A DNA stretch of 64,000 nucleotides from a virus (lineage: Duplodnaviria > Heunggongvirae > Uroviricota > Caudoviricetes): IMG/VR virus record IMGVR_UViG_3300022173_000112, positions 2,916 to 66,915 of that record. One strand, given 5' to 3'. How positions within the stretch are numbered: position 1 is the stretch's first letter; each line of letters begins with the position of its first letter. The translations under genes were made by a program, and so were the position numbers. The notes under the pieces are model-generated. The model was not told the origin of the DNA. It did not search any database and saw only the letters and a program-made list of their open reading frames with translations. Positions 3,685-57,479 of the stretch are shown here, piece by piece.

Positions 3685-3929
3685 TGAAAAGTGACAAAGC
3701 CATGATTCTGAATCCGGACCTATGGCCACGCTGGCCCTGGCTTCCGGTGAAAAAGAGCAGCACGACGTTACTCACTGGCCTTCTCTGTTGTTCGGAAGAA
3801 CACCTGGAAGGCAAGATGATTATCTATCATGCTTACCTCTACAACATGCCTCCAACGATGGAAGGCGTCAAGACCACAGAGTATCCGAATGTCGATGCAA
3901 TGCTTGCTGATGGATGGGTCATCGATTGA
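3684..3929 (+). CDS. Hypothetical protein (82 aa)
   Basis: ATG overlaps the previous stop (gtgATGa). Frame of ORF 3657..3929. Confidence 0.35.
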   Translation: MKSDKAMILNPDLWPRWPWLPVKKSSTTLLTGLLCCSEEHLEGKMIIYHAYLYNMPPTMEGVKTTEYPNVDAMLADGWVID

Positions 3930-3935
3930 GCCGGT

Positions 3936-3974
3936 TGCCGGTTCCCGACTGAACCGGACGGAATCGCCGTACAC
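3936..3974 (+). promoter_or_regulatory. Early-region hairpin+leader element R8 (different stem sequence)
   Basis: ccggttc-ccgact-gaaccgg hairpin, then ACGGAAtCGCCGTACAC, RBS aaggagg, GTG at 3994. Confidence 0.5.
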
Positions 3975-3993
3975 TCTAACCAAAGGAGGAAAC

Positions 3994-4335
3994 GTGATTA
4001 CATCTGAATTCGAGTATTACTTGGTTCAGGAGTTGATCGGGATGCCGGATCGTGAACTCGCCCAAAAGATCGAGTTGCATATCTGGTATCGTTGTGCAAC
4101 TCCACAGCCAAAGATACTCGCGAGATACTTGAAGTTGCTCAAGGAATCGGAAGACTCCGAAGGCTTCATCGAGGAAGCTCGCAAGTATCTCGACGAGAGC
4201 GGCTTGGAATTCGTTCAGCATGAAAATGGCGAATACATCTGCCGCACGCCGAACTTCAATCCACCTGATTACATCGAGATTCCCGCTCAAACGGTTCTCG
4301 ATGCCGAGAAGCAGGAGCCACAATGGCCGGACTAA
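3994..4335 (+). CDS. Hypothetical early protein (113 aa), GTG start
   Basis: GTG 7 nt after RBS aaggagg. Frame of ORF 3829..4335. Confidence 0.45.
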   Translation: MITSEFEYYLVQELIGMPDRELAQKIELHIWYRCATPQPKILARYLKLLKESEDSEGFIEEARKYLDESGLEFVQHENGEYICRTPNFNPPDYIEIPAQTVLDAEKQEPQWPD

Positions 4336-4433
4336 TAATCCTCATTGTGCTGGGTGCAATTTACATCTGGCTAACACGCCCAATCGACATTGTTGTCTAT
4401 GACATTGTCGATGAAGACGATGATTAAAACGGT

Positions 4434-4470
4434 TGCCGGTTCCCGCCTGAACCGGACGGAAGCGCCGTCC
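4434..4470 (+). promoter_or_regulatory. Early-region hairpin+leader element R9
   Basis: ccggttc-ccgcct-gaaccgg hairpin, then ACGGAAGCGCCGTCC, RBS aaggag, ATG at 4493. Confidence 0.5.
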
Positions 4471-4492
4471 CTTTCTTTCTCAAGGAGACTCT

Positions 4493-4765
4493 ATGTCCAA
4501 GACCGAGCAGATTCGTCAAGCCCTCATGCAGCATCCGAATGCTTCCGTGAGCAAACTCGCCACCAAATTCAAGGTGTCAACGGGTTTGATCTACGGCATT
4601 CGGGGTGCGATGAAGGATGCACGAAACCCGATTGTCCAGCCAAGGCCGATCGTCAAGGTCGATGGGGTCAAGCACACCATCGACACGATCATCAACATGA
4701 AGAAGCTCGCCGAATCGGTGGGCGGCTTCGACCGTTTGATCGAACTGGCGGACGCCTTGCGGTGA
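4493..4765 (+). CDS. Hypothetical early protein (90 aa), possible HTH
   Basis: ORF after R9. Confidence 0.5.
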   Translation: MSKTEQIRQALMQHPNASVSKLATKFKVSTGLIYGIRGAMKDARNPIVQPRPIVKVDGVKHTIDTIINMKKLAESVGGFDRLIELADALR

Positions 4766-4778
4766 AGAAAGAAACCGG

Positions 4779-4823
4779 GGGCTTCCCAGCGGTATATCTG
4801 GGGAGACGGAATCGTCGTACACT
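4779..4823 (+). promoter_or_regulatory. Early-region hairpin+leader element R10 (no ORF follows it)
   Basis: cttcccag-cggtatat-ctggggag hairpin, then ACGGAAtCGtCGTACAC. The next ATG hits a stop after 2 codons. This may be a decayed copy or a non-coding leader. Confidence 0.35.
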
Positions 4824-4931
4824 TGATAATCAACTCTGAACGTGAGAGCTATCGACTATGGGTTAGCGATTGCTAAAGCGTACCTTTGGGGTAAGCAGTC
4901 TAGCCTAACGTCTCGGAGTTGTAACACCGGG

Positions 4932-4973
4932 CACGATCCAGCGGTATATCTGGGTCGTCGGAAGCGCCTTACC
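4932..4973 (+). promoter_or_regulatory. Early-region hairpin+leader element R11
   Basis: cgatccag-cggtatat-ctgggtcg hairpin, then tCGGAAGCGCCttACC, RBS ggagg, ATG at 4990. Confidence 0.5.
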
Positions 4974-5769: not shown

Positions 5770-6155
5770 TAATCGAATCGACCGATTTGATTACATAGTG
5801 AACAACCGTATACTGACAAACTGGCATTGAATTTTCAATGTCAATTTGTCAGTGGTCAATTGTCTACTGACAAATTGACATTGAATTTAAGGCGCGACGC
5901 GGGGAGTGGCAAGATGCCGCTTCCCGCGTCTTTTCGCTTTGAATTCAACGGAAGCGAGCGTAAATTTTCTTTTTCAAAATTTCCAGAAACGCGGCACCAT
6001 TATTGCCATTGTTTCCACGAAAAGGTAGCACCATTGCGCTTACATTTTCGGTAATCAATTGCTTAAAGTGCGATTCCAAAGGGATCATTTGAGAATTCGA
6101 TTTGGTTTTTCGATTTGAACTTGACGTGTATTACTGAACGTAGAAAAGTCGATTA

Positions 6156-6182
6156 GAAAAGGTGTCACAGAATCACCTTTTC
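6156..6182. terminator. Perfect 9-bp hairpin gaaaaggtg-N9-caccttttc in the zone where the two gene blocks meet
   Basis: Inverted repeat flanked by A/T runs between the plus and minus gene blocks. Candidate bidirectional intrinsic terminator. Confidence 0.35.
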
Positions 6183-6642
6183 AAATCAAAATAGTTTCAC
6201 CGATTTGTCCCAAAAAATTCACGCGGCCCAAAATTGACCCTACTATTTTCTTTTAATTCTCTATATTCATATCCGAGAAAGAAAGAAAGAAAGAGTTCTA
6301 ATAAAAGAGAAGAGAATTGAAAAAATTAGTAGGCGAGTTCGCCGCGCCGCTCGCAGCATTTGAAATGCCTCTAGGATGCCGTTTCCCGTTGCCAGTTTCG
6401 ACGGGGCCGCGTCCGAAACGTGAAAAGGTAAACTCACCCATTGACCCATCGCAACGCCCTGGCGCGGCATTGTGGAAGTTTCAAAAATTCCCACAAGAAT
6501 TTTTTGGGCGCAAATCGTGAAAGAAAATTGAAAAGAAATGCCGATTACTTGACCACTGACCCATGACGAATGAATCAACGCTCAAGTAATCGGTGTTTGG
6601 AAGTGTGTTTAGACATGACCCATGACTCATGAGTCAACTAAT

Positions 6643-34289: not shown

Positions 34290-34495
34290 TAGTTTGGCCC
34301 TTGTTGTTTTTCAGGATGGTTATACGTGAAGCGTTCGCCGTCACCAATGACAAGGTCACGCTCCATGCGTTTACTCATCGTTTCGATTTTGACCCTTGAC
34401 TCTTTGACTGGCGGCTCAGTGCAGCCAGCAGCATGGGCCAGACGCATTTGACGAATCCGTTCGTACTTGGTCATTTGTCGCTCTCCATGTGCCAC
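34289..34495 (-). CDS. Hypothetical protein (68 aa)
   Basis: ORF track. Confidence 0.35.
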   Translation of the reverse strand: MAHGERQMTKYERIRQMRLAHAAGCTEPPVKESRVKIETMSKRMERDLVIGDGERFTYNHPEKQQGPN

Positions 34496-35316
34496 GGTGC
34501 AGAGAACGATCCGGCGTGTTTGTGGCCACCACCGCCGAATCGGGTACAGATTTCGCTAACGTCCATGCCGTTGGGGTCAGAACGTAACGAGTAGCAGAAA
34601 CGCTTCTCTTTGTCCTTGTTCCACCAGATGATCGCGAAAGGTTTGCCCTTCGCAAGTTCGCCGCCGATTTCCGATTGCAGAACGGTGGAGTTCACAATCG
34701 GAATACCATCGACATTGTCGAACTTAATCGTTGACGCCTGACTCACGGCTTTCTGAATCAGTTTCTCTTGGTACCGAAGAATCGGATTACCTTGAGCCAC
34801 GCACTCAGCATAGCCGAGCTTGGTCAGCATCTCGCAGTTCTCCATCGAGAATGCGAACGACTGGATGCAAGCGTCAACGGCCTTGGAACCGGGGAGTTCC
34901 CACTTCCAAAGATCGCGGTCTTGGATGTAGGGAAGAATCCACGGTCGGGCACACATGGGATTGTAGTACGACCATGTGATTGCCGCCCCGCACGCATTGA
35001 TGTCGTAGACATACTCGAATGGGTACGAAGGCTTGAAACCTTCCATTTTGATTTTGGAAGATTTGTGATGGTCGAGGATTTTGAGGGATTTGTATTTGGC
35101 AGATTCCAAGGTCTCGCGTTCAGGACAATAGTCCACGCAAATAACATCCCAACCATCGAGGTCAGGAATCTTGGTTTGGTAATAGACGGGAACCAACTCT
35201 GCCGACAGATTGTGGAGATGCGCGTAGTATGCCGCGAAGATTCCGTCGGCACAGTTAGCGTGGTAAAGAATGGCTTTCATTTCTTTGTCCTTAAGAAAGA
35301 GGCTTGCTGAGGTCAA
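34471..35316 (-). CDS. DHH/DHHA1 phosphoesterase (NrnA/RecJ-like)
   Basis: HANCADG (motif I), LDHH (DHH motif), and GGGHKHAGS (DHHA1 GGGH). Confidence 0.7.
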   Translation of the reverse strand: MTSASLFLKDKEMKAILYHANCADGIFAAYYAHLHNLSAELVPVYYQTKIPDLDGWDVICVDYCPERETLESAKYKSLKILDHHKSSKIKMEGFKPSYPFEYVYDINACGAAITWSYYNPMCARPWILPYIQDRDLWKWELPGSKAVDACIQSFAFSMENCEMLTKLGYAECVAQGNPILRYQEKLIQKAVSQASTIKFDNVDGIPIVNSTVLQSEIGGELAKGKPFAIIWWNKDKEKRFCYSLRSDPNGMDVSEICTRFGGGGHKHAGSFSAPWHMESDK

Positions 35317-35736: not shown

Positions 35737-37188
35737 TTACTCTTCGAATGAGTATTCACGCGACCGAATGAAGTCGATGATTGCCTCGCTCCATCCACTG
35801 ATGTGGACGAACTTGTTGTACCCGATTCCATTCTCATTGCAACTGATGTTGATGAGGTAGTTGGAATCACCGAAGGCGTTCGCCTGCGACGGATCGAGCT
35901 TGCTGCCAGGGGTCTGGCAATCTTGCTCGTCCGTGATGACGATGACGCGGTCAGCCGTCCGCTCTTCCTGATACACATGGTCCATGACCTGTTTCAGGAA
36001 GATACCACCCTGGCCGATTTTGTGGCGAAGTTGTAACTCGCTGAAGATTCGCGACAACTCGAAACCGCGTCGAGCCGGAACTTGCATCGTCGCGTGGCGA
36101 CATGCTGTATCGTTACCGGCCGTCGCATAGATGACCGGGTTCTCGGCGATCTCTTTGACGAGAATCGCCAGGGCACCGGCAGCATCCAACCGCGACAGGT
36201 CGCTCTTGGCCGAGACTTTGCCCTGAGTCATGGACCCTGACGAGTCCACAATCAGAACCGTCTTGCCGGGGAGCTTCGGCATCTTCTCCAAGCAGCGTAG
36301 CATCATCTCTTCGATCATGTTCTGCCAGGCCGGAACAGCACGGTAGGCCGCGATGAATCGGAATGGCAACACACGATCGAGGTTGACACGCTTGGCGTAA
36401 TCAACAACGAGTTCCTTGGCCACGCCGCTCTGTTCCATATTGCGAAGATTCCGCAGGAACGCGAGGGCACCGAGCTTGTCCTGCTCCATCAGACGCGTGA
36501 ATGTCTCGCACTTGTCGGCTCCCGCAGAAAGCTCAACTTCCCAAGTATCGGGAGTTTTGAGAGTGCCTTCCGCCAGCTTGTGGTAGAGGGAATCGGTGTG
36601 TCGAAGCAAGGACTTGGCATGTCCATCTTTATAGGTGCGGTGTTTGATAACCGCAGGACCCACGTCAGCCGGCTTGGGGTGACAGAGGAACATGGCGTCC
36701 CGGAGCTTGACGGCCCCGTCACGATTGTACTTAGCCAAGGCGTACTCATTGAAGTTCCCGAAGGCTTTCGCCAGTCCTTTCTTGACTTGGGCGGAAATCG
36801 GGCACTTGCCATCTTTCCAATAAATGGCAAGGAATTCCGCCAACTCGTCAGCACGCTGAATGATTTCCGGGAGCAGGTCTTTGACCAGACCCTTGTGGCT
36901 ATCCAGCCGAGCCATTTCACGAGCGATGAGCAGCGGCACATGGCGCAGCTTCTGATTCGTGCGGGCGTCGATGGCCATGTTCGCCACCTTCTGCGGGTCC
37001 ACCTGTTTGATCAGGTTACAAATCCGCTTCGCGATCGTCTCGCCGGATTCATAGAAGGTGTCTTCCCACAACATGCACGCCATCACGGATCGCCGAAGTT
37101 GTTCTTCGGGATTCACGTTGCTGGCGATTGCTCCGCCGTGGGTGCGCTTGACAAGCTTCGGAACCTTGGTCTTCACATTCGTCTTCAT
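35737..37188 (-). CDS. rsr: Ro60/Rsr-like RNA-binding protein (TROVE domain plus C-terminal vWA with MIDAS)
   Basis: N-terminal HGGAIASNV...LWEDTFYESGE...RHVPLLIAREMAR resembles the TROVE consensus. C-terminal LIVDSSGSM (MIDAS DxSxS), GQGGI and VIVITDEQD parallel the Ro60 vWA segment. Confidence 0.55.
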   Translation of the reverse strand: MKTNVKTKVPKLVKRTHGGAIASNVNPEEQLRRSVMACMLWEDTFYESGETIAKRICNLIKQVDPQKVANMAIDARTNQKLRHVPLLIAREMARLDSHKGLVKDLLPEIIQRADELAEFLAIYWKDGKCPISAQVKKGLAKAFGNFNEYALAKYNRDGAVKLRDAMFLCHPKPADVGPAVIKHRTYKDGHAKSLLRHTDSLYHKLAEGTLKTPDTWEVELSAGADKCETFTRLMEQDKLGALAFLRNLRNMEQSGVAKELVVDYAKRVNLDRVLPFRFIAAYRAVPAWQNMIEEMMLRCLEKMPKLPGKTVLIVDSSGSMTQGKVSAKSDLSRLDAAGALAILVKEIAENPVIYATAGNDTACRHATMQVPARRGFELSRIFSELQLRHKIGQGGIFLKQVMDHVYQEERTADRVIVITDEQDCQTPGSKLDPSQANAFGDSNYLINISCNENGIGYNKFVHISGWSEAIIDFIRSREYSFEE

Positions 37189-37395
37189 GATGCATTCCTT
37201 AAAAAGGGATTAACCACTCATCGCTGCTTCCACTGTCGGCGTCGCACTTCACCTGGGGTGATTGCAAGACGGCGACTTTTGTTGTTCATTGAGGTTATCT
37301 CAATCTTCGGCTTGGGTCCACCGATGTAGAACCCAACGCCGAAGATTGCAAAGGCACCTGTCACATACGGAGGAATCGGTGCTTCCGGATGCATG

Positions 37396-37935
37396 TTATC
37401 TCCGTGGCAAATGCCAGACTGGGATGTTCGGTGGCATCCTACCGCTGTAGAAAGCCTCTGCTCCGATTAGCTCACGAAGCAGACCTAACGCTTGACGCCT
37501 GACTGTGACATAGTAGTAGTCACACCGGGCATCACGAACCGTGTCCCACACTTGGTACAACTGGTCCGTATCGACGATTGCATCTCGGATGACATCCGCG
37601 TGGATCAAGTCTATCTCTAACCTCTTGTTCAAATCGTTTCGATACGACCGATTCAAGGCTAGGAAGTCGTTGATCAATTTTCTTTCAGGATACCGAGAGC
37701 ATTCTCCCAAATAAGGCAGACCCTTGAAATCTTCATTACGACCTTGCAACATCGCGAGATCACCAACGGAATCTTGCGTGAGCAGGAAGGCACGTTCCCT
37801 CGGATCAAGAATCTCACCATCAATAGCGAGAGCCAAAATCGAGGGTCGTAATACTTCGATCCAAGCTACATCTACCGGAACGTCTTTCGGCCCAGCTAAC
37901 AAAGCAGCCGCTAAGACGATCTCACAGGTGAACAT
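37396..37935 (-). CDS. Hypothetical protein (180 aa)
   Basis: Start trimmed to MFTCEIV, because the longer ORF would read through tRNA-His. Confidence 0.4.
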   Translation of the reverse strand: MFTCEIVLAAALLAGPKDVPVDVAWIEVLRPSILALAIDGEILDPRERAFLLTQDSVGDLAMLQGRNEDFKGLPYLGECSRYPERKLINDFLALNRSYRNDLNKRLEIDLIHADVIRDAIVDTDQLYQVWDTVRDARCDYYYVTVRRQALGLLRELIGAEAFYSGRMPPNIPVWHLPRR

Positions 37936-37961
37936 GACATAGACACCCTCCAAGAGAGGAA

Positions 37962-38035
37962 GGTGGCCGACGGGGGTCGAACCCGCAACCTCCGGAATCA
38001 CAATCCGGTGCTCTGCCAATTGAGCTACGACCAAC
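37962..38035 (-). tRNA. tRNA-His (anticodon GUG) with an extra 5' G opposite the discriminator C
   Basis: GCTC-AATTGGCA-GAGC D-arm, CCGGA-TTGTGAT-TCCGG anticodon arm, GCGGG-TTCGACC-CCCGT T-arm. The 8-nt 5' acceptor strand is typical of tRNA-His. Confidence 0.6.
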
Positions 38036-38045
38036 ATGAATTTGC

Positions 38046-38119
38046 GGGAACAAGCGGAACGGCTGCTGCCCTTTCGGGCGATCAAACCATCTTTGAAGTA
38101 ACCGTTTCCTAACGCCACG
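38046..38119 (-). repeat. Structured repeat unit 1 (GAAGTAACCG-N-CGCCAC family); immediately 5' of tRNA-His on the minus strand
   Basis: Core gaagtaaccgtttcctaacgccac (38095-38118). The variable helix GGAAACGG pairs with CCGTTCC 30 nt away. Almost identical to unit 6. Confidence 0.4.
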
Positions 38120-38132
38120 CAAACAAGGTTGT

Positions 38133-38220
38133 GGGGAACAATCGCTGTAGTTAGCCGGTATCGAGCCGGCAACCCTTTCGGGCCATCAAACCAAGAAGTA
38201 GCTACAACTATCACCACCAC
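38133..38220 (-). repeat. Degenerate copy of the structured repeat (unit 1b)
   Basis: ggggaacaatcg...ccctttcgggccatcaaacca-gaagtagctacaactatcaccac parallels unit 1. Confidence 0.3.
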
Positions 38221-38349
38221 AAAAGGGTGACCCCGGCGGACTTGCACCGCATTACCGCCTCGCGGCGGCGTGTTACCTATAGCATCCCACATTATAGGAT
38301 GCAGCCGGTGATTACACTACCTGGGTCGTAAAAGTATTAGAGGGATAAT

Positions 38350-38456
38350 AATCGGCAACAGGGGTTGGTCTTTTGCTCTGCCAGTTGAGCTACGTCCCGA
38401 AGAACGATGGGATTCGAACCCATAACCCAAAGAAGTAACTGTTACCTACGCCACTC
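38350..38456 (-). ncRNA. Composite tRNA-like module: repeat unit 2, then a T-arm, then a UUCG hairpin, then a tRNA 5' half (acceptor plus D-arm)
   Basis: Minus strand: GAGTGGCGTAGGTAACAGTTACTTC.. ATGGG-TTCGAAT-CCCAT, then CGTTC-TTCG-GGACG, then GTAGCTCAACTGGCAGAGC. No anticodon or T-arm follows the 5' half. Confidence 0.35.
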
Positions 38457-38689
38457 TAATTCGGAGCCGATGGCGGGGTTTACGAAAGACTTATCGACTT
38501 ACCCGCGAAACAGGATCGTATCATGCTTTTGGTCTCGATTCCTCATCCAAAGCGGACGAGGACCACTAAGCATTGCCACCACGCTAAGGCCCAGTGCACT
38601 GGGATGTCCGCGTTCATCGGCGATATTTTGGTCCAGAGCCTTCACGGTAACACACCGTGGCCTGCCCAGCAAAAGCACTCTGGACCAAA

Positions 38690-38760
38690 TCGGGATCGGG
38701 GATTAAAAGTCAGGGCGGCACTTTTAACAGAAGTAACCCATGACAATCGCCACCGAAAGT
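38690..38760 (-). repeat. Structured repeat unit 3
   Basis: Core 38730-38753. Inner helix GTCA(T)GGG/CCCTGAC crossing with TTAAAAG/CTTTTAA. Ends CTTTCGGTGGCG ... AATCCCCGAT. Confidence 0.4.
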
Positions 38761-38763
38761 TTG

Positions 38764-39024
38764 TTACTTGGGCTTCCACTCTTCGGGAATCTTTTCAACA
38801 TCGTTGAAGATGTTGCCCATCCGAATCTTCCAGTCTTCACCTTCCGGGCGACCGGCATGGTGATACATGGTCTCTCCCACCTGACGCCAGACTCCTTGCT
38901 GGGATTCCGGCGGCACGTAGGCCGCTCGTTTCATCAGTTGTTCCAAGTCGTTGGCCAACGCGACTTCCGTCGGCGGCAGAACTTCTTGAATGATGAACTT
39001 CACCAATCGATCCAGGTCTCGCAT
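38764..39024 (-). CDS. Hypothetical protein (86 aa)
   Basis: ORF track. Repeat unit 3 lies just past its stop. Confidence 0.45.
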   Translation of the reverse strand: MRDLDRLVKFIIQEVLPPTEVALANDLEQLMKRAAYVPPESQQGVWRQVGETMYHHAGRPEGEDWKIRMGNIFNDVEKIPEEWKPK

Positions 39025-39040
39025 GATTCTTTCCTTAAAA

Positions 39041-39247
39041 TTAACGATTCATTTCTTCCGCGAACTTCTTCCAGGCGTTGCATGTACGGACGCACCGATC
39101 ATGAACGGCTCTTGCTGCTTCAAAGGCTGTTGGCCAGAATCGTTCACCGTCAGGCCACATACCGTAGCTGGGACCATCAGCCAAAATATCAGCTAGAATC
39201 TCTTCATAGCTGGTTGGCTCATGAACAATGACGGTCAGCATCACCAA
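39041..39247 (-). CDS. Hypothetical protein (68 aa)
   Basis: ORF track. Confidence 0.4.
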   Translation of the reverse strand: MVMLTVIVHEPTSYEEILADILADGPSYGMWPDGERFWPTAFEAARAVHDRCVRTCNAWKKFAEEMNR

Positions 39248-39924
39248 CCCTCCATCGGAAATTCAAGGTACACTTGAACCTGACGACGGATTTCATTGGT
39301 CATGGTCTTCGTCCGGTCAGTGTTCGTACTGATTCGGCCGAACCAACGCCAACCATTCTTCACGGCCTTGACGCCGGTATGGAAGGCTTGCCAGTCGAAG
39401 GCAACCAAGTGGTTGTCAAGGCAGTCCTGCACTTGAACCTTACCAGCTTTGATTAACGCTTCGACTTCTTCGTGCCACTGACGGTAGACAAGCTGACCCG
39501 GTGGCACATCTTTCATCTCACATTTGCCGAACACGAACTTGGTCGGACAAATGACGCCATTCACCAGACCCATGATGTGCCGCGACTTGTATCGCGGGTT
39601 CTCATAATCTGGTTGGCCAGCAGTCAGAAAGTGCTGACCCGGAGGAATCACGGCTCGCGGCACATCGTCATGGTGCCAACCAGGGATGGCGGGATACCAT
39701 CCGGGCATCAACATGTGACACCGCGAATCGAAGACACCACCATGATAGTCCTCAGGCAATGCCTGGAGGAAGCTCTTCGTAATCGGTCCGCCATGTTCCC
39801 AAGCGTAGGAGACGGACGAGTTGAAGAACATCGGTTCGTTCTTGATGGCGTCCTGACTGAACTGATTCGGCAGAGCGAAAGGACGAACAATGAATGCTTG
39901 CGAGTCGAACACTTTCATTTTCAA
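39241..39924 (-). CDS. Hypothetical protein (227 aa)
   Basis: ORF track. His/Trp-rich. No motif recognised. Confidence 0.5.
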   Translation of the reverse strand: MKMKVFDSQAFIVRPFALPNQFSQDAIKNEPMFFNSSVSYAWEHGGPITKSFLQALPEDYHGGVFDSRCHMLMPGWYPAIPGWHHDDVPRAVIPPGQHFLTAGQPDYENPRYKSRHIMGLVNGVICPTKFVFGKCEMKDVPPGQLVYRQWHEEVEALIKAGKVQVQDCLDNHLVAFDWQAFHTGVKAVKNGWRWFGRISTNTDRTKTMTNEIRRQVQVYLEFPMEGW

Positions 39925-39974
39925 TTTCCTTAATTAAAACGGGGATTAACTGAACACGGTGGTAATCCCTGAGG

Positions 39975-40050
39975 GGCGGTTTACAGCCGCTCTCTCGGGA
40001 CTTCTCCGGACATGGTGGGGAAGTAACCGTATTCAAACGCCACCGCAAAA
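39975..40050 (-). repeat. Structured repeat unit 4
   Basis: Core 40020-40043. Here ACTTCC pairs with GGAGAAGT downstream. Confidence 0.35.
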
Positions 40051-40192
40051 AGATAACTTGGGAGTTCAGAAGGCACGGGCCATCACCTTCTACCTTAATC
40101 CTTTCTGAGGGATTAACAGGAATACCACGCTCCTGCCTACTGCCAGATTCTTGCCTCTGGCTTGCATTCTGGGGTCCGTTCAAGTTATTAGG

Positions 40193-40262
40193 TATCGGGG
40201 ATTAAAAGCTTAGGGTTGGCACTTTTAACAGAAGTATCCCTTAGCATACGCCACCGAAAAGC
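40193..40262 (-). repeat. Structured repeat unit 5
   Basis: Core 40231-40253. Inner helix GCTAAGGG/CCCTAAGC (8 bp) crossing TTAAAAG/CTTTTAA. Closing helix TCGG(T)GG/CCCCGA. Confidence 0.4.
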
Positions 40263-40357
40263 ACACGCCAGTATCCAGCATTTATTGAATGCCCCGTCTG
40301 GCCACGGTGCATCGGACTCAAACTTCCCTATGCTAGACTGTAGGGAATCTTAAAACT

Positions 40358-40432
40358 CGGGAACAAGCGGAACGGCTATTGCCATTTAAGGCATCCACTT
40401 TTCAATTGAAGTAACCGTTTCCTAACGCCACG
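40358..40432 (-). repeat. Structured repeat unit 6 (near-duplicate of unit 1)
   Basis: gggaacaagcggaacggctattgcc...gaagtaaccgtttcctaacgccac. Core 40408-40431. Confidence 0.4.
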
Positions 40433-40503
40433 AGAGTGTTGGGTTTTGCTAACCATAAGTGACCACACCAACAGGCCACCCTTCGATTCCTCCAAAAACG
40501 GGT

Positions 40504-40752
40504 TTAGAGTTGGTCCGCGAGGTAGAGCAGAGCAGCCTTGAAAGCCGCTTTGGTTTTTGCAGGGGACGCGGGGACTTCTTCCATCTTGGCCGTCATCTCG
40601 TCGAAAAGACGATTCTGTTCGGCTTCCATTTCTTCCTGCGTCGAGTTCGGTTTCGATTCGTACAACCGAAAAAACGTGACAATCGCACTGAGCGTACGAA
40701 GTGTCGTAGCCATCTTCATGGACAGAGTCAGCAGCAAAAGTTCCTTGAGCAT
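40504..40752 (-). CDS. Hypothetical helical protein (82 aa from MLKELL)
   Basis: Longer ORF 40504..40830. Only the C-terminal part looks protein-like. Confidence 0.4.
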   Translation of the reverse strand: MLKELLLLTLSMKMATTLRTLSAIVTFFRLYESKPNSTQEEMEAEQNRLFDEMTAKMEEVPASPAKTKAAFKAALLYLADQL

Positions 40753-40844
40753 CGAACGATTCCTTAAAAGAGTGTGGAAGAAACAGGGGCGAGTAACCAG
40801 CGTCAGAACCCCGATGACCCAATTACCCACCCCTGTGATTCAAA

Positions 40845-40915
40845 AATCGGGGATTGTTCGCTACGGCTTTTCGTGCAAAGGTAGAAGTAACCGTAGCAAT
40901 CGCCACCGAAAGAGC
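40845..40915 (-). repeat. Structured repeat unit 7
   Basis: Core 40884-40906. Inner helix GCTACGG/CCGTAGC (7 bp) encloses TTACTTC. Confidence 0.4.
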
Positions 40916-41069
40916 ATGTACTCACGTTATCTGTTATTCTCTTCAATCTTCGGCATCGTGCCTACTTTCGAGGCAGACCACGCCGTGAGTACGACCCATG
41001 TAGGTTACGTCCACTTAAGGACGATTGCTACCAGGGCGGGCCAGATGGGGACGGAACCCTACTCCAGCG

Positions 41070-41294
41070 TCAGGCCGGCTTTGCAGCCAGCTTATCCAGA
41101 TACTTGGCCTTGTTCACGATGCCTCGACGAATCGAGGCGATCACAGCGTTGGCACGTTTGACATGCCGCTCCGTGTACGTCTTGCCGATGAACTTCTCGG
41201 CAATCGTGCCCGCATCGAGCAGGGCACCGTCTTTGTCTCGACCTAACTTGCTGACATTGGCTTTCGTGATGTTAGTCATGGTTAGTGACTCCAA
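41070..41294 (-). CDS. Small basic protein (74 aa), possibly DNA-binding
   Basis: ORF track. Lys/Arg-rich. Confidence 0.4.
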   Translation of the reverse strand: MESLTMTNITKANVSKLGRDKDGALLDAGTIAEKFIGKTYTERHVKRANAVIASIRRGIVNKAKYLDKLAAKPA

Positions 41295-41312
41295 TGAGAA
41301 GAGGGAACGGGT

Positions 41313-41591
41313 TTAGGACGCCAGGAGATACACGCCGCGAGGTTTGTCGAAGACAATCGTGGCGATGACCACTGACTCTTCGACCTCGACTTCTTTCGGT
41401 TTGCCTTCGACGATTTCGGTCTTCTTGACCATCTGCATTTCCTTCACTTCTTGGCGGTCGCCAAAGAGCTTCTTGGCATTGGCCCGAATCTTCGTGGGCA
41501 ATGCCCCGCGACCCGGCCAGAGTTCACGCAGCGACACTTGACCGCCATTCCGTTTGCGGCATCGGTCAATGATCTTCTGAACTTCGCTCAT
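41313..41591 (-). CDS. Hypothetical protein (92 aa)
   Basis: ORF track. Repeat unit 8 lies in its 5' leader. Confidence 0.45.
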   Translation of the reverse strand: MSEVQKIIDRCRKRNGGQVSLRELWPGRGALPTKIRANAKKLFGDRQEVKEMQMVKKTEIVEGKPKEVEVEESVVIATIVFDKPRGVYLLAS

Positions 41592-41609
41592 GATGCACCT
41601 TTTCCTTAG

Positions 41610-41686
41610 GGTTGAAAATCGGGGAACAAACGATTACAGCGTCACATCACCAAAAGAAGTAGCCGTAATCAAACGCCACCGAAAGC
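41610..41686 (-). repeat. Structured repeat unit 8 (between tRNA-Trp and the gene at 41591)
   Basis: Core 41656-41679. Then ...TTCCCCGAT, RBS, ATG. Confidence 0.4.
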
Positions 41687-41758
41687 ACGACCGGGTGGGT
41701 TCGAACCACCAACCTACGGATTTGGAATCCGTCGCTCTGCCAGTTGAGCTACTAGCCG
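41686..41758 (-). tRNA. tRNA-Trp (anticodon CCA), acceptor stem imperfect
   Basis: GCTC-AACTGGCA-GAGC, ACGGA-TTCCAAA-TCCGT, GGTGG-TTCGAAC-CCACC. Several acceptor mismatches as drawn. Confidence 0.5.
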
Positions 41759-41825
41759 TGTTGTGTCCGGGAATAAGTCGAATCAGTATAGCATCCTACC
41801 ATTAGACGACAAGCCCCGAAGGACT

Positions 41826-41890
41826 CGGTGGGATTCGAACCCACATCTCTTCTTTGACATAGAAGTAACCGATTCTAAACGCCACGGAAC
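41826..41890 (-). ncRNA. Repeat unit 9 fused to a T-arm (tRNA-like module with GUC in a 7-nt loop)
   Basis: Minus strand: GTGGCGTTTAGAATCGGTTA-CTTCT-ATGTCAA-AGAAG-AGAT-GTGGG-TTCGAAT-CCCAC. No matching acceptor stem. Confidence 0.35.
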
Positions 41891-41957
41891 TAAGAACCAG
41901 GGATCAGTGAAACCGGGTTGCGCTCTGCCATGCCTGCGCTCGCACCCCTTGCGGAGT

Positions 41958-42015
41958 GAGTTAGGATTCGAACCTAAAATCACCTTGATGAAGTATCCGA
42001 TCTCGTCGCCACTGG
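41958..42015 (-). ncRNA. Repeat unit 10 fused to a T-arm-like hairpin
   Basis: TTAGG-TTCGAAT-CCTAA adjacent to core 41990-42012. Confidence 0.3.
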
Positions 42016-42019
42016 TAAG

Positions 42020-42092
42020 TTGTGTCGGGGATTATACGGTAACGGGGTTACAACGCCTAATGAAGTACCCGCTACCTTACGCCACCGAACGT
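42020..42092 (-). repeat. Structured repeat unit 11
   Basis: Core gaagtacccgctaccttacgccac 42062-42085. Confidence 0.35.
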
Positions 42093-42095
42093 CAC

Positions 42096-42299
42096 TTAGA
42101 CGATCACCACGAGCAGGCCGAGCAGGAACGCGATGTAATCCGGCGATTCGCGAACCGAGATGGCTTCCAGGTCCGAATCGATGTCGATACGAGTGCGGTT
42201 GTCGCTCTCGTTCTCGCCGAGGATCGGCACCATACACAGAATCATTTCCGGCCGAATCCAGATCGAGTGGCCCGTTTCGTAGCAAGTGAGACGAATCAT
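42096..42299 (-). CDS. Hypothetical protein (67 aa)
   Basis: ORF track. Confidence 0.35.
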   Translation of the reverse strand: MIRLTCYETGHSIWIRPEMILCMVPILGENESDNRTRIDIDSDLEAISVRESPDYIAFLLGLLVVIV

Positions 42300-43879: not shown

Positions 43880-44953
43880 TTACTTGGCCAGGAGCAGTTT
43901 CGTACCACGCGGCAAGATGCGATTCACGCTCTTGCTCTGGATGAAGATGTCGTAGTTACCGTGGTTGCCCGGCACGATCTTAGCGTGTTGGTCACGCGGC
44001 AGACCGATCAGGTCGCGGGCTTCGGGGCCACCGTAAATCTTCTTGGTGCGGCCGGTGTTCTTCTCTTGGATGAGAACCTCTTTTGAGGGCTGAACCTTTT
44101 CCGGCTTCACCAGTTGATAGAAGGCCGTACCGGGGATGTAATCCTTGCCGGTCTGCTCTTCAACGAAACCGCGGATGATCGATTCGTTGGCGACCGTGAA
44201 CAGACGGAAGCTCGCCGCCAAATCGTCGAGTTGCTTCTTGACGTTGACCTTCGAGAGGTCCGGCGTCGCCTTGAAGAAACCCTTCGTCTGAGTGACACCG
44301 CGGGCACGGTTGTCCATGTAGTTGGACACCGCGTTCGAGGTCTCGTCGCTCATCTTCCGCGTGCCGATCTCGGTCAGTTCCCATTCGTTGACGTTGTCGA
44401 TCGCGATTCCGAACTGACGACAGAAGACTTCGCGGCGACCGACGGGAAGCTGGAACGCGAACGTCCAGTTGCCCTTGTCTTCGCGGTTGACGATCATCCG
44501 TTTCAGGTCCGAAGCCGTGGTGAAGACCGAGTTGAGTTCTTCACCGTCCGTAATCGGATGGATCAGGAAGCTCGTGTTCTCGTCGGTCGGCACGTTGTCG
44601 AACAACGCGATGGCCGAAGCGACGGCATCGAACAGGGCCGTCCCACCGCCGGGGTTGTAGTTCGTGTGATCCAGGTCGGGAATCATGTTCACGTTGGCGT
44701 GCTTGAAGAGCGGTTCATTCACGCGGTCGTTGAACGTAATCAGGGACACGTAGACATCCTGATTCTTGAGAGCCGACTTGCGTTGCAGCGTCGCCTTGAT
44801 GTTGTTGAACGTCTGCCGAACCGAGGCGGTCAGTCGGCTGTGACCAATCGAACTGGACGAATCCAGCACGATGGCGATGTAGGTCTTCTGACGGGGCTTG
44901 GTGACGCGGCGGCGAGTGGTGGGAGTGCGAGCCATGATTTTGGTGTCCTTCAT
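43880..44953 (-). CDS. von Willebrand factor A (vWA) domain protein
   Basis: MIDAS VLDSSSSIG near the N-terminus. 357 aa. Confidence 0.6.
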   Translation of the reverse strand: MKDTKIMARTPTTRRRVTKPRQKTYIAIVLDSSSSIGHSRLTASVRQTFNNIKATLQRKSALKNQDVYVSLITFNDRVNEPLFKHANVNMIPDLDHTNYNPGGGTALFDAVASAIALFDNVPTDENTSFLIHPITDGEELNSVFTTASDLKRMIVNREDKGNWTFAFQLPVGRREVFCRQFGIAIDNVNEWELTEIGTRKMSDETSNAVSNYMDNRARGVTQTKGFFKATPDLSKVNVKKQLDDLAASFRLFTVANESIIRGFVEEQTGKDYIPGTAFYQLVKPEKVQPSKEVLIQEKNTGRTKKIYGGPEARDLIGLPRDQHAKIVPGNHGNYDIFIQSKSVNRILPRGTKLLLAK

Positions 44954-51511: not shown

Positions 51512-51775
51512 TCACTTCTTGATCAGAGCCAGGATGGCATTGATCACGGTTTGCAAATCCAACTTCTGACCCGAGAACAGACTCAGGACGAGCGGCAGGA
51601 GAACAGCCAGAATCGTCACAAGTCCAACGCCAGCAGCCTGTGCCTGCTTGACGGCGTCACCGAGCTTTGTCTCGGCGTCGCGACCATACTGGTACGCAAC
51701 GCTCTTCAAAAGCATTTTCAGTGTTCCCTGTTGATTCGCACCAACGACACCTGCAAGGTGTTGAGCTTCGATCAT
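51512..51775 (-). CDS. Small membrane protein (87 aa)
   Basis: C-terminal TM helix. Confidence 0.4.
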   Translation of the reverse strand: MIEAQHLAGVVGANQQGTLKMLLKSVAYQYGRDAETKLGDAVKQAQAAGVGLVTILAVLLPLVLSLFSGQKLDLQTVINAILALIKK

Positions 51776-52968
51776 TTATCCTTCTCCAAGTAAGTTGCCC
51801 CAACGCACTTGAGACACAAGCGTCCCAAGTGAATATCCGTTCGTTCGATGAGCGGCTTGACCACACAACCCTCACGATGGTGTTGTGCAATCATGGACTG
51901 CCCATCGCTCAAGTTCACAACCAGGTCGAAGTTGTAATCGTGAATACCGAGGAACGGTACCCACGGAACATTCGGTGCCGCATCGCGAGCTTCTTGAGCA
52001 TTCAGCCAACGGCCTTCGTCAAGAATGTCGAACACAGCAATCGAGACTGGCTTGTCTTGAGTGTGGCCGTACTTCAAGGTCTGTACGTTGCCGTAGACTT
52101 CACCGTACAAAATCTTGCCCGGATTATCACGGCACCACTTTTCAATTTCCGGTTCATGGCTCAACGCCGTCCACCACATGTTCCGCGACTTTGTCGGGGA
52201 ATGTAGGCGATCGTAAATCTGTTGACAGCGTTCTTCATCGGGGATGTTCGTGTCTTTGTTCAAGACCCGCTCACGCAACCAATCCATCGTGATATGGTCG
52301 TAAGACGGGAACTCCTTCTTCCATTCAGTTCGAGACCCACAGTGCATCGCACCGTCTTGATAGACGTACCGTGCGTTAGCTCCGTGAATCTTCTCGGTGA
52401 TCCAAACCTTCTCGCCAGGAATCAGCAAGTTGTGATACTTGCGGAAGGCATCGAGATCATACTTCGGACTGTTCAAGCTAGGAGCCTTGGCGACTTCGCC
52501 ACCAAGTACCAAGCCGTTGGAAGCTCGTTGCTCACCGGGCAGCGGCGGTTCGTAGTGAGTGACACCCAACTGTGCCGCAACGTCTTGACCCACGACGCTA
52601 CCTTCCGGTGCCGGAATCATCAGACCGAACGAGACGACACCACGCAGCTTCATGGCCTTGACGCGGTGCGTACCATCAGCCTTGGCTTTCGGCAAGAGGA
52701 AGTCAAACTCTTTCCGGTTTGTGTCAACCACCGAATCAGGCGGAAGATACGCACCAAGAGCGACACCCTGCCAGTCTTGCGTTCGGACGATACAGGTGTA
52801 TCCTCCGAAGACCCGAACGATACTGAGCGAATCAGCGTTCGGGTGCTTTTCCATCACGATCGGAACAACTTCAACTTGATGCGTGCTGTTTGACATTGTA
52901 TGCTCGGTAGTTAAAGGGTAGTGCTTACCAGCGTCTCGGTTCCATCTCAACAAGACGTTGTAATTCAT
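51772..52968 (-). CDS. ATP-dependent RNA ligase (Rnl2-like) with an N-terminal OB/tRNA-binding-like region
   Basis: Nucleotidyltransferase motif I EKIHGANA (KxHG, as in T4 Rnl2 EKIHGTN) and EGCVVKP (motif IV/V). Confidence 0.55.
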   Translation of the reverse strand: MNYNVLLRWNRDAGKHYPLTTEHTMSNSTHQVEVVPIVMEKHPNADSLSIVRVFGGYTCIVRTQDWQGVALGAYLPPDSVVDTNRKEFDFLLPKAKADGTHRVKAMKLRGVVSFGLMIPAPEGSVVGQDVAAQLGVTHYEPPLPGEQRASNGLVLGGEVAKAPSLNSPKYDLDAFRKYHNLLIPGEKVWITEKIHGANARYVYQDGAMHCGSRTEWKKEFPSYDHITMDWLRERVLNKDTNIPDEERCQQIYDRLHSPTKSRNMWWTALSHEPEIEKWCRDNPGKILYGEVYGNVQTLKYGHTQDKPVSIAVFDILDEGRWLNAQEARDAAPNVPWVPFLGIHDYNFDLVVNLSDGQSMIAQHHREGCVVKPLIERTDIHLGRLCLKCVGATYLEKDK

Positions 52969-57187: not shown

Positions 57188-57479
57188 TGGTCTGGTTCGC
57201 CTTCACAAGAGCGAGAAGAGTAATCGCCTGGTCGATCTTGTCATCAGAGCCGCCAGTCAGAAGCTCATGAATCAGTTCGTTGGTTCGACGCAGCTTGTAC
57301 GTCATGTCCGCATCGACAACAATCTTGAACCAGTTGGTGTCGTGGTGTTTGTCGATGGAATCAGTCAGTGCCTTCTTGATCGCCTTGATCCCGATTTTTC
57401 TTTTTGCGGCCATAGTTGCGAATCTCCTTGTACTTGGTGCGAAGGCGTTTGAGTGCTTCTTTGAGGAGTAGTTGTTCAC
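57180..57479 (-). CDS. Hypothetical basic protein (99 aa)
   Basis: ORF track. Confidence 0.35.
   Translation of the reverse strand: MNNYSSKKHSNAFAPSTRRFATMAAKRKIGIKAIKKALTDSIDKHHDTNWFKIVVDADMTYKLRRTNELIHELLTGGSDDKIDQAITLLALVKANQTNG

Follow-up and report, generated by a model that had tools for sequence, protein, structure and literature searches.

The stretch of DNA analysed here (64,000 nucleotides of a Caudoviricetes phage, positions 2,916 to 66,915 of IMG/VR record IMGVR_UViG_3300022173_000112, hereafter the window) carries on its minus strand a gene for a homologue of Ro60/Rsr, the ring protein that binds Y RNAs, and on the same strand an array of structured, repeated RNA units. An earlier note, made from the sequence alone, had described this region as a Ro60 gene with about 12 tRNA-like repeats downstream of it, a candidate phage Y-RNA system. 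Looser motif matching combined with covariance models resolved exactly 12 units of one structured RNA between 38040 and 42088, all on the Ro60 strand; the estimated copy number was thus correct but the orientation was not, as the array lies on the 5' (upstream) side of the Ro60 gene.

The predicted 483-amino-acid product is a Ro60/TROVE protein. It matches the Pfam TROVE family (PF05731) above threshold, as the earlier note had expected (score 53.8 bits, cut-off 23; E=2.4e-14), and PHROG 850, annotated as 'RNA-binding protein' (E=1e-38). The best solved relative is the Ro60 of Thermus phage phiLo (9KOP/9L5Y; crystal and cryo-electron microscopy chains), which aligns with residues 15-480 at 27% identity (E=4e-28). 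A DSSGS motif at approximately residues 314-318 aligns with DVSGS of phiLo Ro60, in keeping with the proposed TROVE-plus-vWA architecture with a MIDAS (metal-ion-dependent adhesion site) motif, while the Pfam vWA models (vWA_Ro60 and VWA_2) stay sub-threshold at 17 bits. Mutation of eight basic residues weakens binding of phiLo Ro60 to its Yrl2 RNA (PMC12135203); according to our own mapping of the published numbering onto the 9KOP/9L5Y alignment, lysine or arginine is present in the window protein at five of these eight (K141, K142, R169, R178 and K193) and not at the positions aligned with R137, R163 and R173. Homologues were found at 46 viral and 11 genomic loci, with those of isolated phages being 41-44% identical and coming from phages of Ralstonia (RsoM2USA), Xanthomonas/Xylella (MET23-P3, Usme, Alcala and Fontebon), Brevundimonas, Caulobacter (CcrColossus and CcrPW) and Bacteroides (crAss001-like).

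The pattern GTGGYG-N6-16-YTACTTC occurs nine times between 38.0 and 41.9 kb, always on the minus strand, where 0.06 occurrences are expected by chance, and the count rises to 12 units when the variants GGATACTTC, GGGTACTTC and GGTG are allowed. Two covariance models were used, one built from the window units alone (R1) and one mostly from copies in other contigs and partly from the 12 window units (R2). Across the 64-kb window R2 recovered all 12 units, none with an E-value above 2.4e-9, and had no other match at E<=1. A 20-bit R1 match at 57335-57399 on the plus strand was rejected as probably due to chance, being in coding-like sequence, without UACUUC and gone with R2.

Numbered from the end distal to Ro60 (Table 1), the units form two tight clusters with tRNA genes, u1-u2-u3-tRNA-Trp-u4 and u11-u12-tRNA-His, in which the spacers are 2-8 nt; u10 lies 113 nt upstream of u11, and single units elsewhere stand among small open reading frames (ORFs) with their own ribosome-binding sites, all in one direction. 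Eight of the 12 units are within 4 kb of the Ro60 start codon and the remaining four at 4.4-4.9 kb. The field had been described as mostly non-coding and packed with tRNA genes and tRNA halves, a description that needs revision: about 54% of 38040-42100 is free of protein-coding sequence, with six small ORFs taking up ~46%, the 12 units ~26% and tRNA-Trp ~2%; ARAGORN calls only two canonical tRNA genes in or beside it, for Trp and His; and the supposed halves are internal tRNA-like domains of units. Similarly, the T-arm hairpins noticed at about 38411, 41831 and 41965 are present, but as internal inserts of u10, u3 and u2 rather than as neighbours of the units. Between 35.5 and 43.7 kb there was no enrichment of sigma-70-like promoters (2 found, 5.4 expected) or of intrinsic-terminator-like sites (11 found, 8.3 expected), which argues against the repeats being promoter DNA.

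In the 5' to 3' direction of the minus strand, every unit opens with one strand of a basal helix P1 (4-7 nt, variable, with G as last base), a bulged U and GG, and goes on with CG and two or three A/U, the first strand of a second helix P2 of 7-8 nt and, after a single free nucleotide, UACUUC. A variable apex (14-82 nt) comes next, and the unit closes with the P2 3' strand, a junction ending UU-R-W-U, then CC and the P1 3' strand. Minimum free energy (MFE) folds recovered the bulged P1 and P2 in 10 of the 12 units, the other two having had mis-set boundaries in that run. The motif after P1 is GGCG followed by A/U in 11 units and GGUG in one, with CGAA in none, and the family-wide consensus is GG-Y-G-W-W (the G after Y in 89/89 of the sequences of alignment A3, described below). 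UACUUC is present in all 12 units, with counts over the 89 sequences of U87 A78 C87 U82 U89 C86, and the base before UAC is U, C or A (UUAC, CUAC or AUAC) in ten units and G in u1 and u2. A permuted tRNA-like apex is found in u2, u3 and u10, in which a T arm GGUUCGAAUCC is followed by a hairpin closed by UUCG or GCAA that replaces the acceptor stem and by a D arm; the other nine units have a short apex with no tRNA-like domain, and in u8 ACUUC and GAAGU pair to give a V-like hairpin. P2 and both junction sequences are near-identical in u6 and u12, and u7 and u9 have the apical loop UGUUAAAAGUGCC in common, which indicates that the array probably grew by local duplication.

Table 1. Features of the Ro60 locus, listed in the direction of the minus strand (positions are those of the window; bit scores of units are for covariance model R2)
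Feature	Position	Strand	Description	Basis
u1	42025-42088	minus	Minimal unit, 64 nt	56.3 bits; MFE fold gives P1 with bulged U and P2
u2	41896-42016	minus	YrlA-type unit, 121 nt; apex with T arm, GCAA-closed acceptor-like hairpin and D arm; P1 ACCAG(U)GG/CCCUGGU, P2 GAGAUCGG/CCGGUUUC	40.6 bits; helices from sequence reading; fold
u3	41766-41888	minus	YrlA-type unit, 123 nt; apex with V hairpin, T arm, 7-bp UUCG-closed acceptor-like stem and D arm	51.3 bits
tRNA-Trp(CCA)	41685-41759	minus	6 nt past u3, 2 nt ahead of u4	ARAGORN; Rfam tRNA 49.7 bits
u4	41619-41682	minus	Minimal unit, 64 nt	65.1 bits; fold
u5	40847-40909	minus	Minimal unit, 63 nt	52.9 bits; fold
u6	40356-40434	minus	Unit of 79 nt with two small apical hairpins	56.8 bits; fold
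u7	40195-40257	minus	Minimal unit, 63 nt	56.6 bits; fold
u8	39939-40046	minus	Unit of 108 nt with 67-nt non-tRNA-like apex	48.7 bits; fold
u9	38696-38756	minus	Minimal unit, 61 nt	48.3 bits; sequence
u10	38336-38460	minus	YrlA-type unit, 125 nt; apex with T arm, UUCG-closed acceptor-like hairpin and D arm	53.6 bits; fold
u11	38129-38222	minus	Unit of 94 nt with two apical hairpins; GGUG replaces GGCG	50.6 bits; sequence
u12	38040-38124	minus	Unit of 85 nt with two apical hairpins; 4 nt past u11, 4 nt ahead of tRNA-His	55.1 bits; fold
tRNA-His(GUG)	37961-38035	minus		ARAGORN; Rfam tRNA 57 bits
Two small ORFs	37396-37938; 37218-37394		Between tRNA-His and the Ro60 gene	
Ro60/Rsr homologue	35737-37188	minus	483 amino acids; TROVE ring domain and vWA domain with DSSGS MIDAS-type motif	

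The units share a conserved, strand-specific RNA fold with two covarying helices. A plain MAFFT alignment of the trimmed units (A1) was rejected because the 3' halves were misregistered, and a hand-registered, N-padded alignment of the 12 window units (A2) was used instead. In A2, 82.6% of cells are paired; shifting the 3' partners by 1-3 columns lowers this to 32-52%, and the covariation score from 0.545 to 0.05-0.08. Six core pairs of P1 hold in all 12 units, three of them with double changes, and double changes are found in seven of the eight P2 pairs. The terminal pairing of TCGG(T)GG with CCCCGA picked out by the earlier note is real and covaries, with UCCG(U)GG/CCCGGA of u3 being a compensatory variant of UCGG(U)GG/CCCCGA, and its suggestion of a covariation test yielded abundant compensatory changes. 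Addition of 77 further copies retrieved by R1 from about 45 other contigs gave an alignment of 89 sequences (A3) with 97.2% of cells paired, compensatory changes at 14 of 14 pairs and a score of 0.77 (0.07-0.12 when slid), pair counts that are inflated by the fitting of A3 to the model, which does not apply to A2 or A4. A run free of structural input was therefore added, in which 40 short copies from ~35 loci were aligned with MAFFT (A4) and analysed with RNAalifold; the same two helices and the same bulge were predicted, with compensatory changes at all 14 pairs. G-U pairs are frequent in the helices and every copy is on one strand, indicating that the constraint acts on RNA.

The position of this RNA next to Ro60 genes is near-obligate. 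A protein-blind test consisted of an exact 14-base DNA-pattern scan of IMG/VR, giving 120 viral loci that are mostly chance matches and are useful only after filtering with a covariance model. R1 matched 20 of the first 100 of these loci. By tblastn with the window protein, 16 of the 120 encode a Ro60 homologue, at 38-59% identity, and each of the 16 is among the R1-positive 20; a 17th locus (L068) is 1.4 kb of Caulobacter phage CcrPW directly 5' of its Ro60 gene. A Ro60-seeded test examined the 46 viral loci found via the protein, with 10 kb on each side. R1 produced 82 matches in these loci, every one on the Ro60 strand and 80 of them upstream within ~2.6 kb. With R2 the matches numbered 162; none of them was off the Ro60 strand, and they were spread over 45 of the 46 seeded loci and six of seven isolated-phage loci. 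The only seeded locus without a match (L139) has no upstream sequence present, and the seventh isolated phage, crAss001, is matched by R2 once filters are off. Copies also adjoin the gene, two to four at a time, in 10 of 11 bacterial or metagenome-assembled genome (MAG) contigs with a Ro60 homologue, and the family adjoins the Ro60 gene in every isolated phage fetched, including CcrColossus, Xanthomonas MET23-P3, Rhizobium RHph_Y65, Ralstonia RsoM2USA, the Brevundimonas phages and crAss001. A finder based on regular expressions plus pairing was rejected in favour of covariance-model counts due to 44 wrong-strand false positives as well as misses.

By our own count of R2 matches, arrays of 1-9 copies are usual in this sample, with a median of ~3 over loci, and the 12 copies of the window are the largest number. 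Nine copies are present in the closest relative (L121, with a Ro60 that is 69% identical), eight in CcrColossus, six each in L132, L147 and L150, and five each in L128, L133, L158 and MET23-P3. No neighbouring protein gene of the Ro60 loci is conserved with Ro60 generally, and only L121 shares several; a DHH phosphoesterase, a DNA ligase, an RNA ligase and a vWA protein were each tried as general neighbours and rejected, as none is general across loci. The RNA ligase at 51772-52968, which had been taken to fit an RNA surveillance or repair theme, is real (PF09414, phrog_968) but lies 14.6 kb away and is unlinked to Ro60 elsewhere, so a repair link is unsupported beyond presence in the same phage. 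The recurrence of a same-strand RNA family beside Ro60 homologues in dozens of unrelated contigs supports the suggestion of a phage Y-RNA-like repertoire, and very probably the 483-amino-acid Ro60/Rsr homologue and the 12 non-coding RNAs upstream of it on the same strand are partners in a phage Ro60-Y RNA module. Binding of the units by Ro60 and their biological role are inferred.

Y RNAs of the YrlA type, known next to rsr in Salmonella and Mycobacterium smegmatis among others, have been described as sharing the strand of the Ro60 gene and lying no more than 4 kb from it, with a GNCGAAN0-1G motif near the 5' end that is thought to contact Ro60, a V loop beginning with a conserved YUAY and, in one or more of the RNAs of a genome, a tRNA-like domain; 355 candidates were reported from 254 bacteria and 22 phages, an average of ~1.3 per genome over 276 genomes (Chen 2014, PMC4201824). 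The window units share with YrlA and YrlB the Ro60 strand, an upstream position within a few kb, a basal stem with G-N-C-G near the 5' end and a YUAY ahead of the apical domain, as GGCG-WW stands at the GNCGAAN0-1G site and (Y)UAC corresponds to the YUAY opening the V loop. The order of T arm, closed acceptor-like stem and D arm in u2, u3 and u10 is that of YrlA, while YrlB is a shorter partner RNA without a tRNA-like domain, as are nine of the window units. Among 64 long copies from other loci, 51 have a T-loop motif, and T precedes D in 29 of the 30 with both motifs. Differences from YrlA include GGCG(A/U)(A/U) instead of GNCGAA, the invariant bulged U, the extended UACUUC, the presence of 12 genes rather than ~1.3 per genome and the absence of the tRNA-like domain from most copies. 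We place the window RNAs as probable YrlA/YrlB-related Y RNAs, a phage-centred subfamily that Rfam family RF02553 misses at threshold. The locus is a large example of a known Ro60/Y-RNA partnership and not a new kind of system.

The same RNA family, as detected by R1 and R2, is present in Caulobacter phage CcrColossus (JX100810, L167), whose TROVE protein gp139 is 43% identical to the window Ro60. Eight tandem units at 3751-4948 of this locus fill the 1.2 kb 5' of gp139, with short and tRNA-like forms mixed, most being tRNA-like, and, unlike in the window, they are strictly tandem without intervening ORFs. Within units, the GenBank record has a tRNA-Gln at 4164-4231 and a rho-independent terminator at 4091-4106, leaving the rest unannotated, and the Rfam YrlA model gives sub-threshold scores of 42, 30 and 30 bits for three of the units or their tRNA-like domains. 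With reference to Chen 2014, the phiLo paper (PMC12135203) lists CcrColossus as one of the phages that have Y-RNA-like RNAs. In phiLo itself (9KOP, 9L5Y) the stem-bulge-stem RNAs Yrl1 and Yrl2 adjoin phiRo60, having been picked by eye from the region upstream of the gene; CGAA is needed for full affinity, each base contributing ~3-4-fold, and a ternary complex is formed with host polynucleotide phosphorylase (PNPase) in vitro (PMC12135203). Both phiLo and the window phage have a Ro60 with adjacent RNAs, two in phiLo and 12 in the window. R2 gave only weak matches in phiLo (28 and 14 bits), downstream of phiRo60; the best of these (L171, 5482-5549, 28 bits) contains GUACUUC and overlaps the annotated coding sequence phiLo_25.

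Reports of phage Ro60 proteins with adjacent Y-like RNAs cover the 22 phages above, phiLo, Listeria phage CKA15 and Escherichia phage Bas63. The Ro60-like gp130 of Bas63 counters the Ppl defence; by published description its gene has a series of tRNA-type genes next to it, and a partnership with Y RNAs has been proposed; its Ro60 similarity is reported at fold level only and no Y RNAs are defined there (PMC11482910). PNPase is the Y RNA effector in D. radiodurans and Salmonella. The D. radiodurans Rsr-Yrn1-PNPase complex (RYPER) and the metazoan Ro60-Y particles consist, like the proposed module, of a ring protein and an RNA with a bulged, conserved basal helix, whose distal part recruits an effector, and their RNAs have no detectable sequence relation to those of the window. 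We found no discussion of large phage Y-RNA arrays in main texts or literature searches, the supplementary tables of Chen 2014 being outside this scope.

Several observations weigh against a Ro60-Y RNA module. The strict GNCGAAN0-1G motif is found in none of the 12 units, GGCG being followed by A/U and not by AA, and nine units are without the tRNA-like domain that defines YrlA. The Rfam YrlA model is under its gathering score of 69 everywhere: in the window u10 reaches 40.9 bits (E=9.6e-7, about 1e-6) and u3 20.5 bits (E=0.044 in a 276-nt search), so that the search proposed by the earlier note did detect YrlA similarity but at sub-threshold level, and the other ten units have no match. At gathering thresholds, Rfam finds only tRNAs, one RNase P RNA and transfer-messenger RNAs (tmRNAs), and no YrlA, in the window and 22 related loci. 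UACUUC pairs into a hairpin in only about one-third of copies; the four most distal units are separated from the Ro60 start by several ORFs as well as by distance, with relatives usually being at <1.5 kb; and the model-fitting of A3 noted above belongs to the same side of the account.

A very unlikely alternative is that the units are cis-acting parts of a transcript, either processing or stability signals or autoregulatory binding sites for Ro60. This would agree with their location directly 5' of Ro60 on the same strand in nearly every locus, and with window units that abut ORF starts and stops and lack evident promoters. Position does not discriminate, however, because bacterial Y RNAs are likewise co-transcribed upstream of rsr, with YrlA and YrlB of M. 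smegmatis being cut from a common precursor (Chen 2014, PMC4201824), and the tRNA-like domains, the 2-8-nt spacers to tRNAs and the closed terminal helices resemble those of excised RNA genes; up to 9-12 copies would also be many for an autoregulatory leader. Units could otherwise serve another protein or act alone, for instance by decoying host enzymes that modify or cleave tRNAs, with the linkage to Ro60 reflecting a shared pathway. What every copy retains is the basal bulged stem carrying GGCG-WW, the counterpart of the Ro60-binding module of known Y RNAs, whereas the tRNA-like part is absent from nine of the 12 units and no other protein gene co-occurs with the RNA; we consider this explanation most improbable, even though tRNA enzymes act on YrlA-type domains (Chen 2014, PMC4201824) and units are found inside tRNA gene clusters in the window, L133, L121 and RHph_Y65. 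DNA-level repeats (promoters, terminators, repetitive extragenic palindromic-like elements or recombination sites) or decayed tRNA genes without RNA function might account for the U run at the end of u4, u5, u6 and u8 and for T-arm and D-arm sequences resembling those of neighbouring tRNAs, but are extremely improbable and already largely refuted by covariation, since compensatory changes keep two helices despite sequence drift, G-U pairs are frequent, only one strand is used, promoter- and terminator-like sites are not enriched, no cloverleaf is present, and neither ARAGORN nor the Rfam tRNA model calls the units.

If the locus is a Ro60-Y RNA module, as we prefer, the short spacers, single direction and lack of evident promoters lead us to expect long transcripts that are cut by endonucleases. 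These right-to-left transcripts would also carry tRNA-Trp, tRNA-His, small ORFs and probably Ro60, and host tRNA-processing and other endonucleases would release the units, as for M. smegmatis YrlA/YrlB. The basal module (P1 with its bulged U, GGCG-WW opposite UURWU-CC, and P2) may dock on the outer surface of the Ro60 ring in the manner of the bulged stem and CGAA/GNCGAA motif of known Y RNAs. The differing apices, three tRNA mimics and nine short hairpins or loops opening with UACUUC, could then couple one protein to different partners. Such particles might redirect host RNA decay or quality control, for instance via PNPase as for phiLo in vitro, or blunt host defence. Since the Ro60-like protein of Bas63 counters Ppl, it is plausible that the module takes part in counter-defence or reshapes the turnover of host RNA.

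Ro60-Y RNA particles are well studied in animals and a few bacteria, while the phage literature amounts to one structural paper, on phiLo, and a genetic hint of counter-defence. From the present locus and its relatives the phage RNA partner can be defined with support from covariation (bulged-U stem, GGCG-WW, UACUUC and UURWU-CC); it is missed by current Rfam annotation and appears in GenBank records as blank sequence, a tRNA or a terminator. As the family is found in cultivable phages (CcrColossus, MET23-P3, RHph_Y65, RsoM2USA and crAss001), binding and knock-out experiments are possible. The 12-copy array also raises the question of why one protein needs so many different RNA partners. One speculative answer, which we regard as doubtful, is that the array is a toolkit rather than redundancy: the common basal module would load every RNA on one Ro60, the apices would couple it to different host enzymes or target RNAs or serve to decoy defence nucleases directed at tRNA or RNA, and the minimal UACUUC units would be a distinct, widespread and unnamed class of Ro60 partner, ranging from Caulobacter jumbo phages to crAss001. 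If so, one protein could be enough for a phage to adjust host RNA decay or to evade several defences.

Other segments of the minus strand in the RNA field also show potential for structure. Between u10 and u11, the 107 nt of 38229-38335 fold into a shape like a four-arm cloverleaf (z-score -2.5); one hairpin, GCGGUGCAAGUCCGCC, resembles a T arm, there is a long extra arm, and neither ARAGORN nor Rfam calls a tRNA. Right past u5, a long, near-perfect hairpin at 40780-40836 (z-score -3.95) holds GGGGUGGG and GGUUACUCG in its strands and is reminiscent of a rearranged unit, which R2 does not recognize. Three further segments (38461-38695, 40051-40194 and 40920-41069) fold somewhat better than shuffled sequences (z-scores -1.9 to -2.2), match no family and may contain additional small RNAs. 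Within the field, the minus-strand ORF at 39241-39924 matches phrog_1843 (function unknown, E=1e-72); its DNA is ~65% identical to genes of T4-like Escherichia, Shigella and Aeromonas phages, for which one record annotates a 2OG-Fe(II) oxygenase. In the DNA comparison with deposited phages this gene alone gave a match, and the phage collection contains no close relative of the window.

Two minus-strand genes flank the locus. A DHH phosphoesterase at 34471-35316 (phrog_4771, 2e-64) lies ~420 nt downstream of the Ro60 stop codon with one small ORF between, and has homologues near Ro60 in L121, L123, L124 and L147 and not in the other 42 seeded loci. A vWA-domain protein (PF00092) at 43880-44953, 6.7 kb upstream of Ro60, has homologues in L121, L123, L128 and L130.

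Related loci contain additional RNA genes. In crAss001 (L168, NC_049977) two UACUUC-family copies at 5906-6227 (32.4 and 17.7 bits, filters off) lie in an unannotated 900-nt gap past gp96, an 'RNA-binding protein' with a TROVE domain, and a tRNA-like sequence with an insert comes next; literature searches found no link of crAss phages to Ro60 or Y RNAs. The viral contig L133 encodes a bacterial-type RNase P RNA at 3696-3971 (RF00010, 126.8 bits, above threshold; also in L166), which heads a run of ~25 tRNA genes with interleaved Y-like units, all upstream of Ro60. An alpha-type tmRNA gene is found directly past the Ro60 locus of a 3.8-Mb Dehalococcoidia MAG contig (L184, 6633-6932, minus strand), which may reflect a prophage at ssrA, and Brevundimonas phage Papperlapapp has a permuted tmRNA 2.4 kb downstream of Ro60 (L172, 8787-9042, plus strand).

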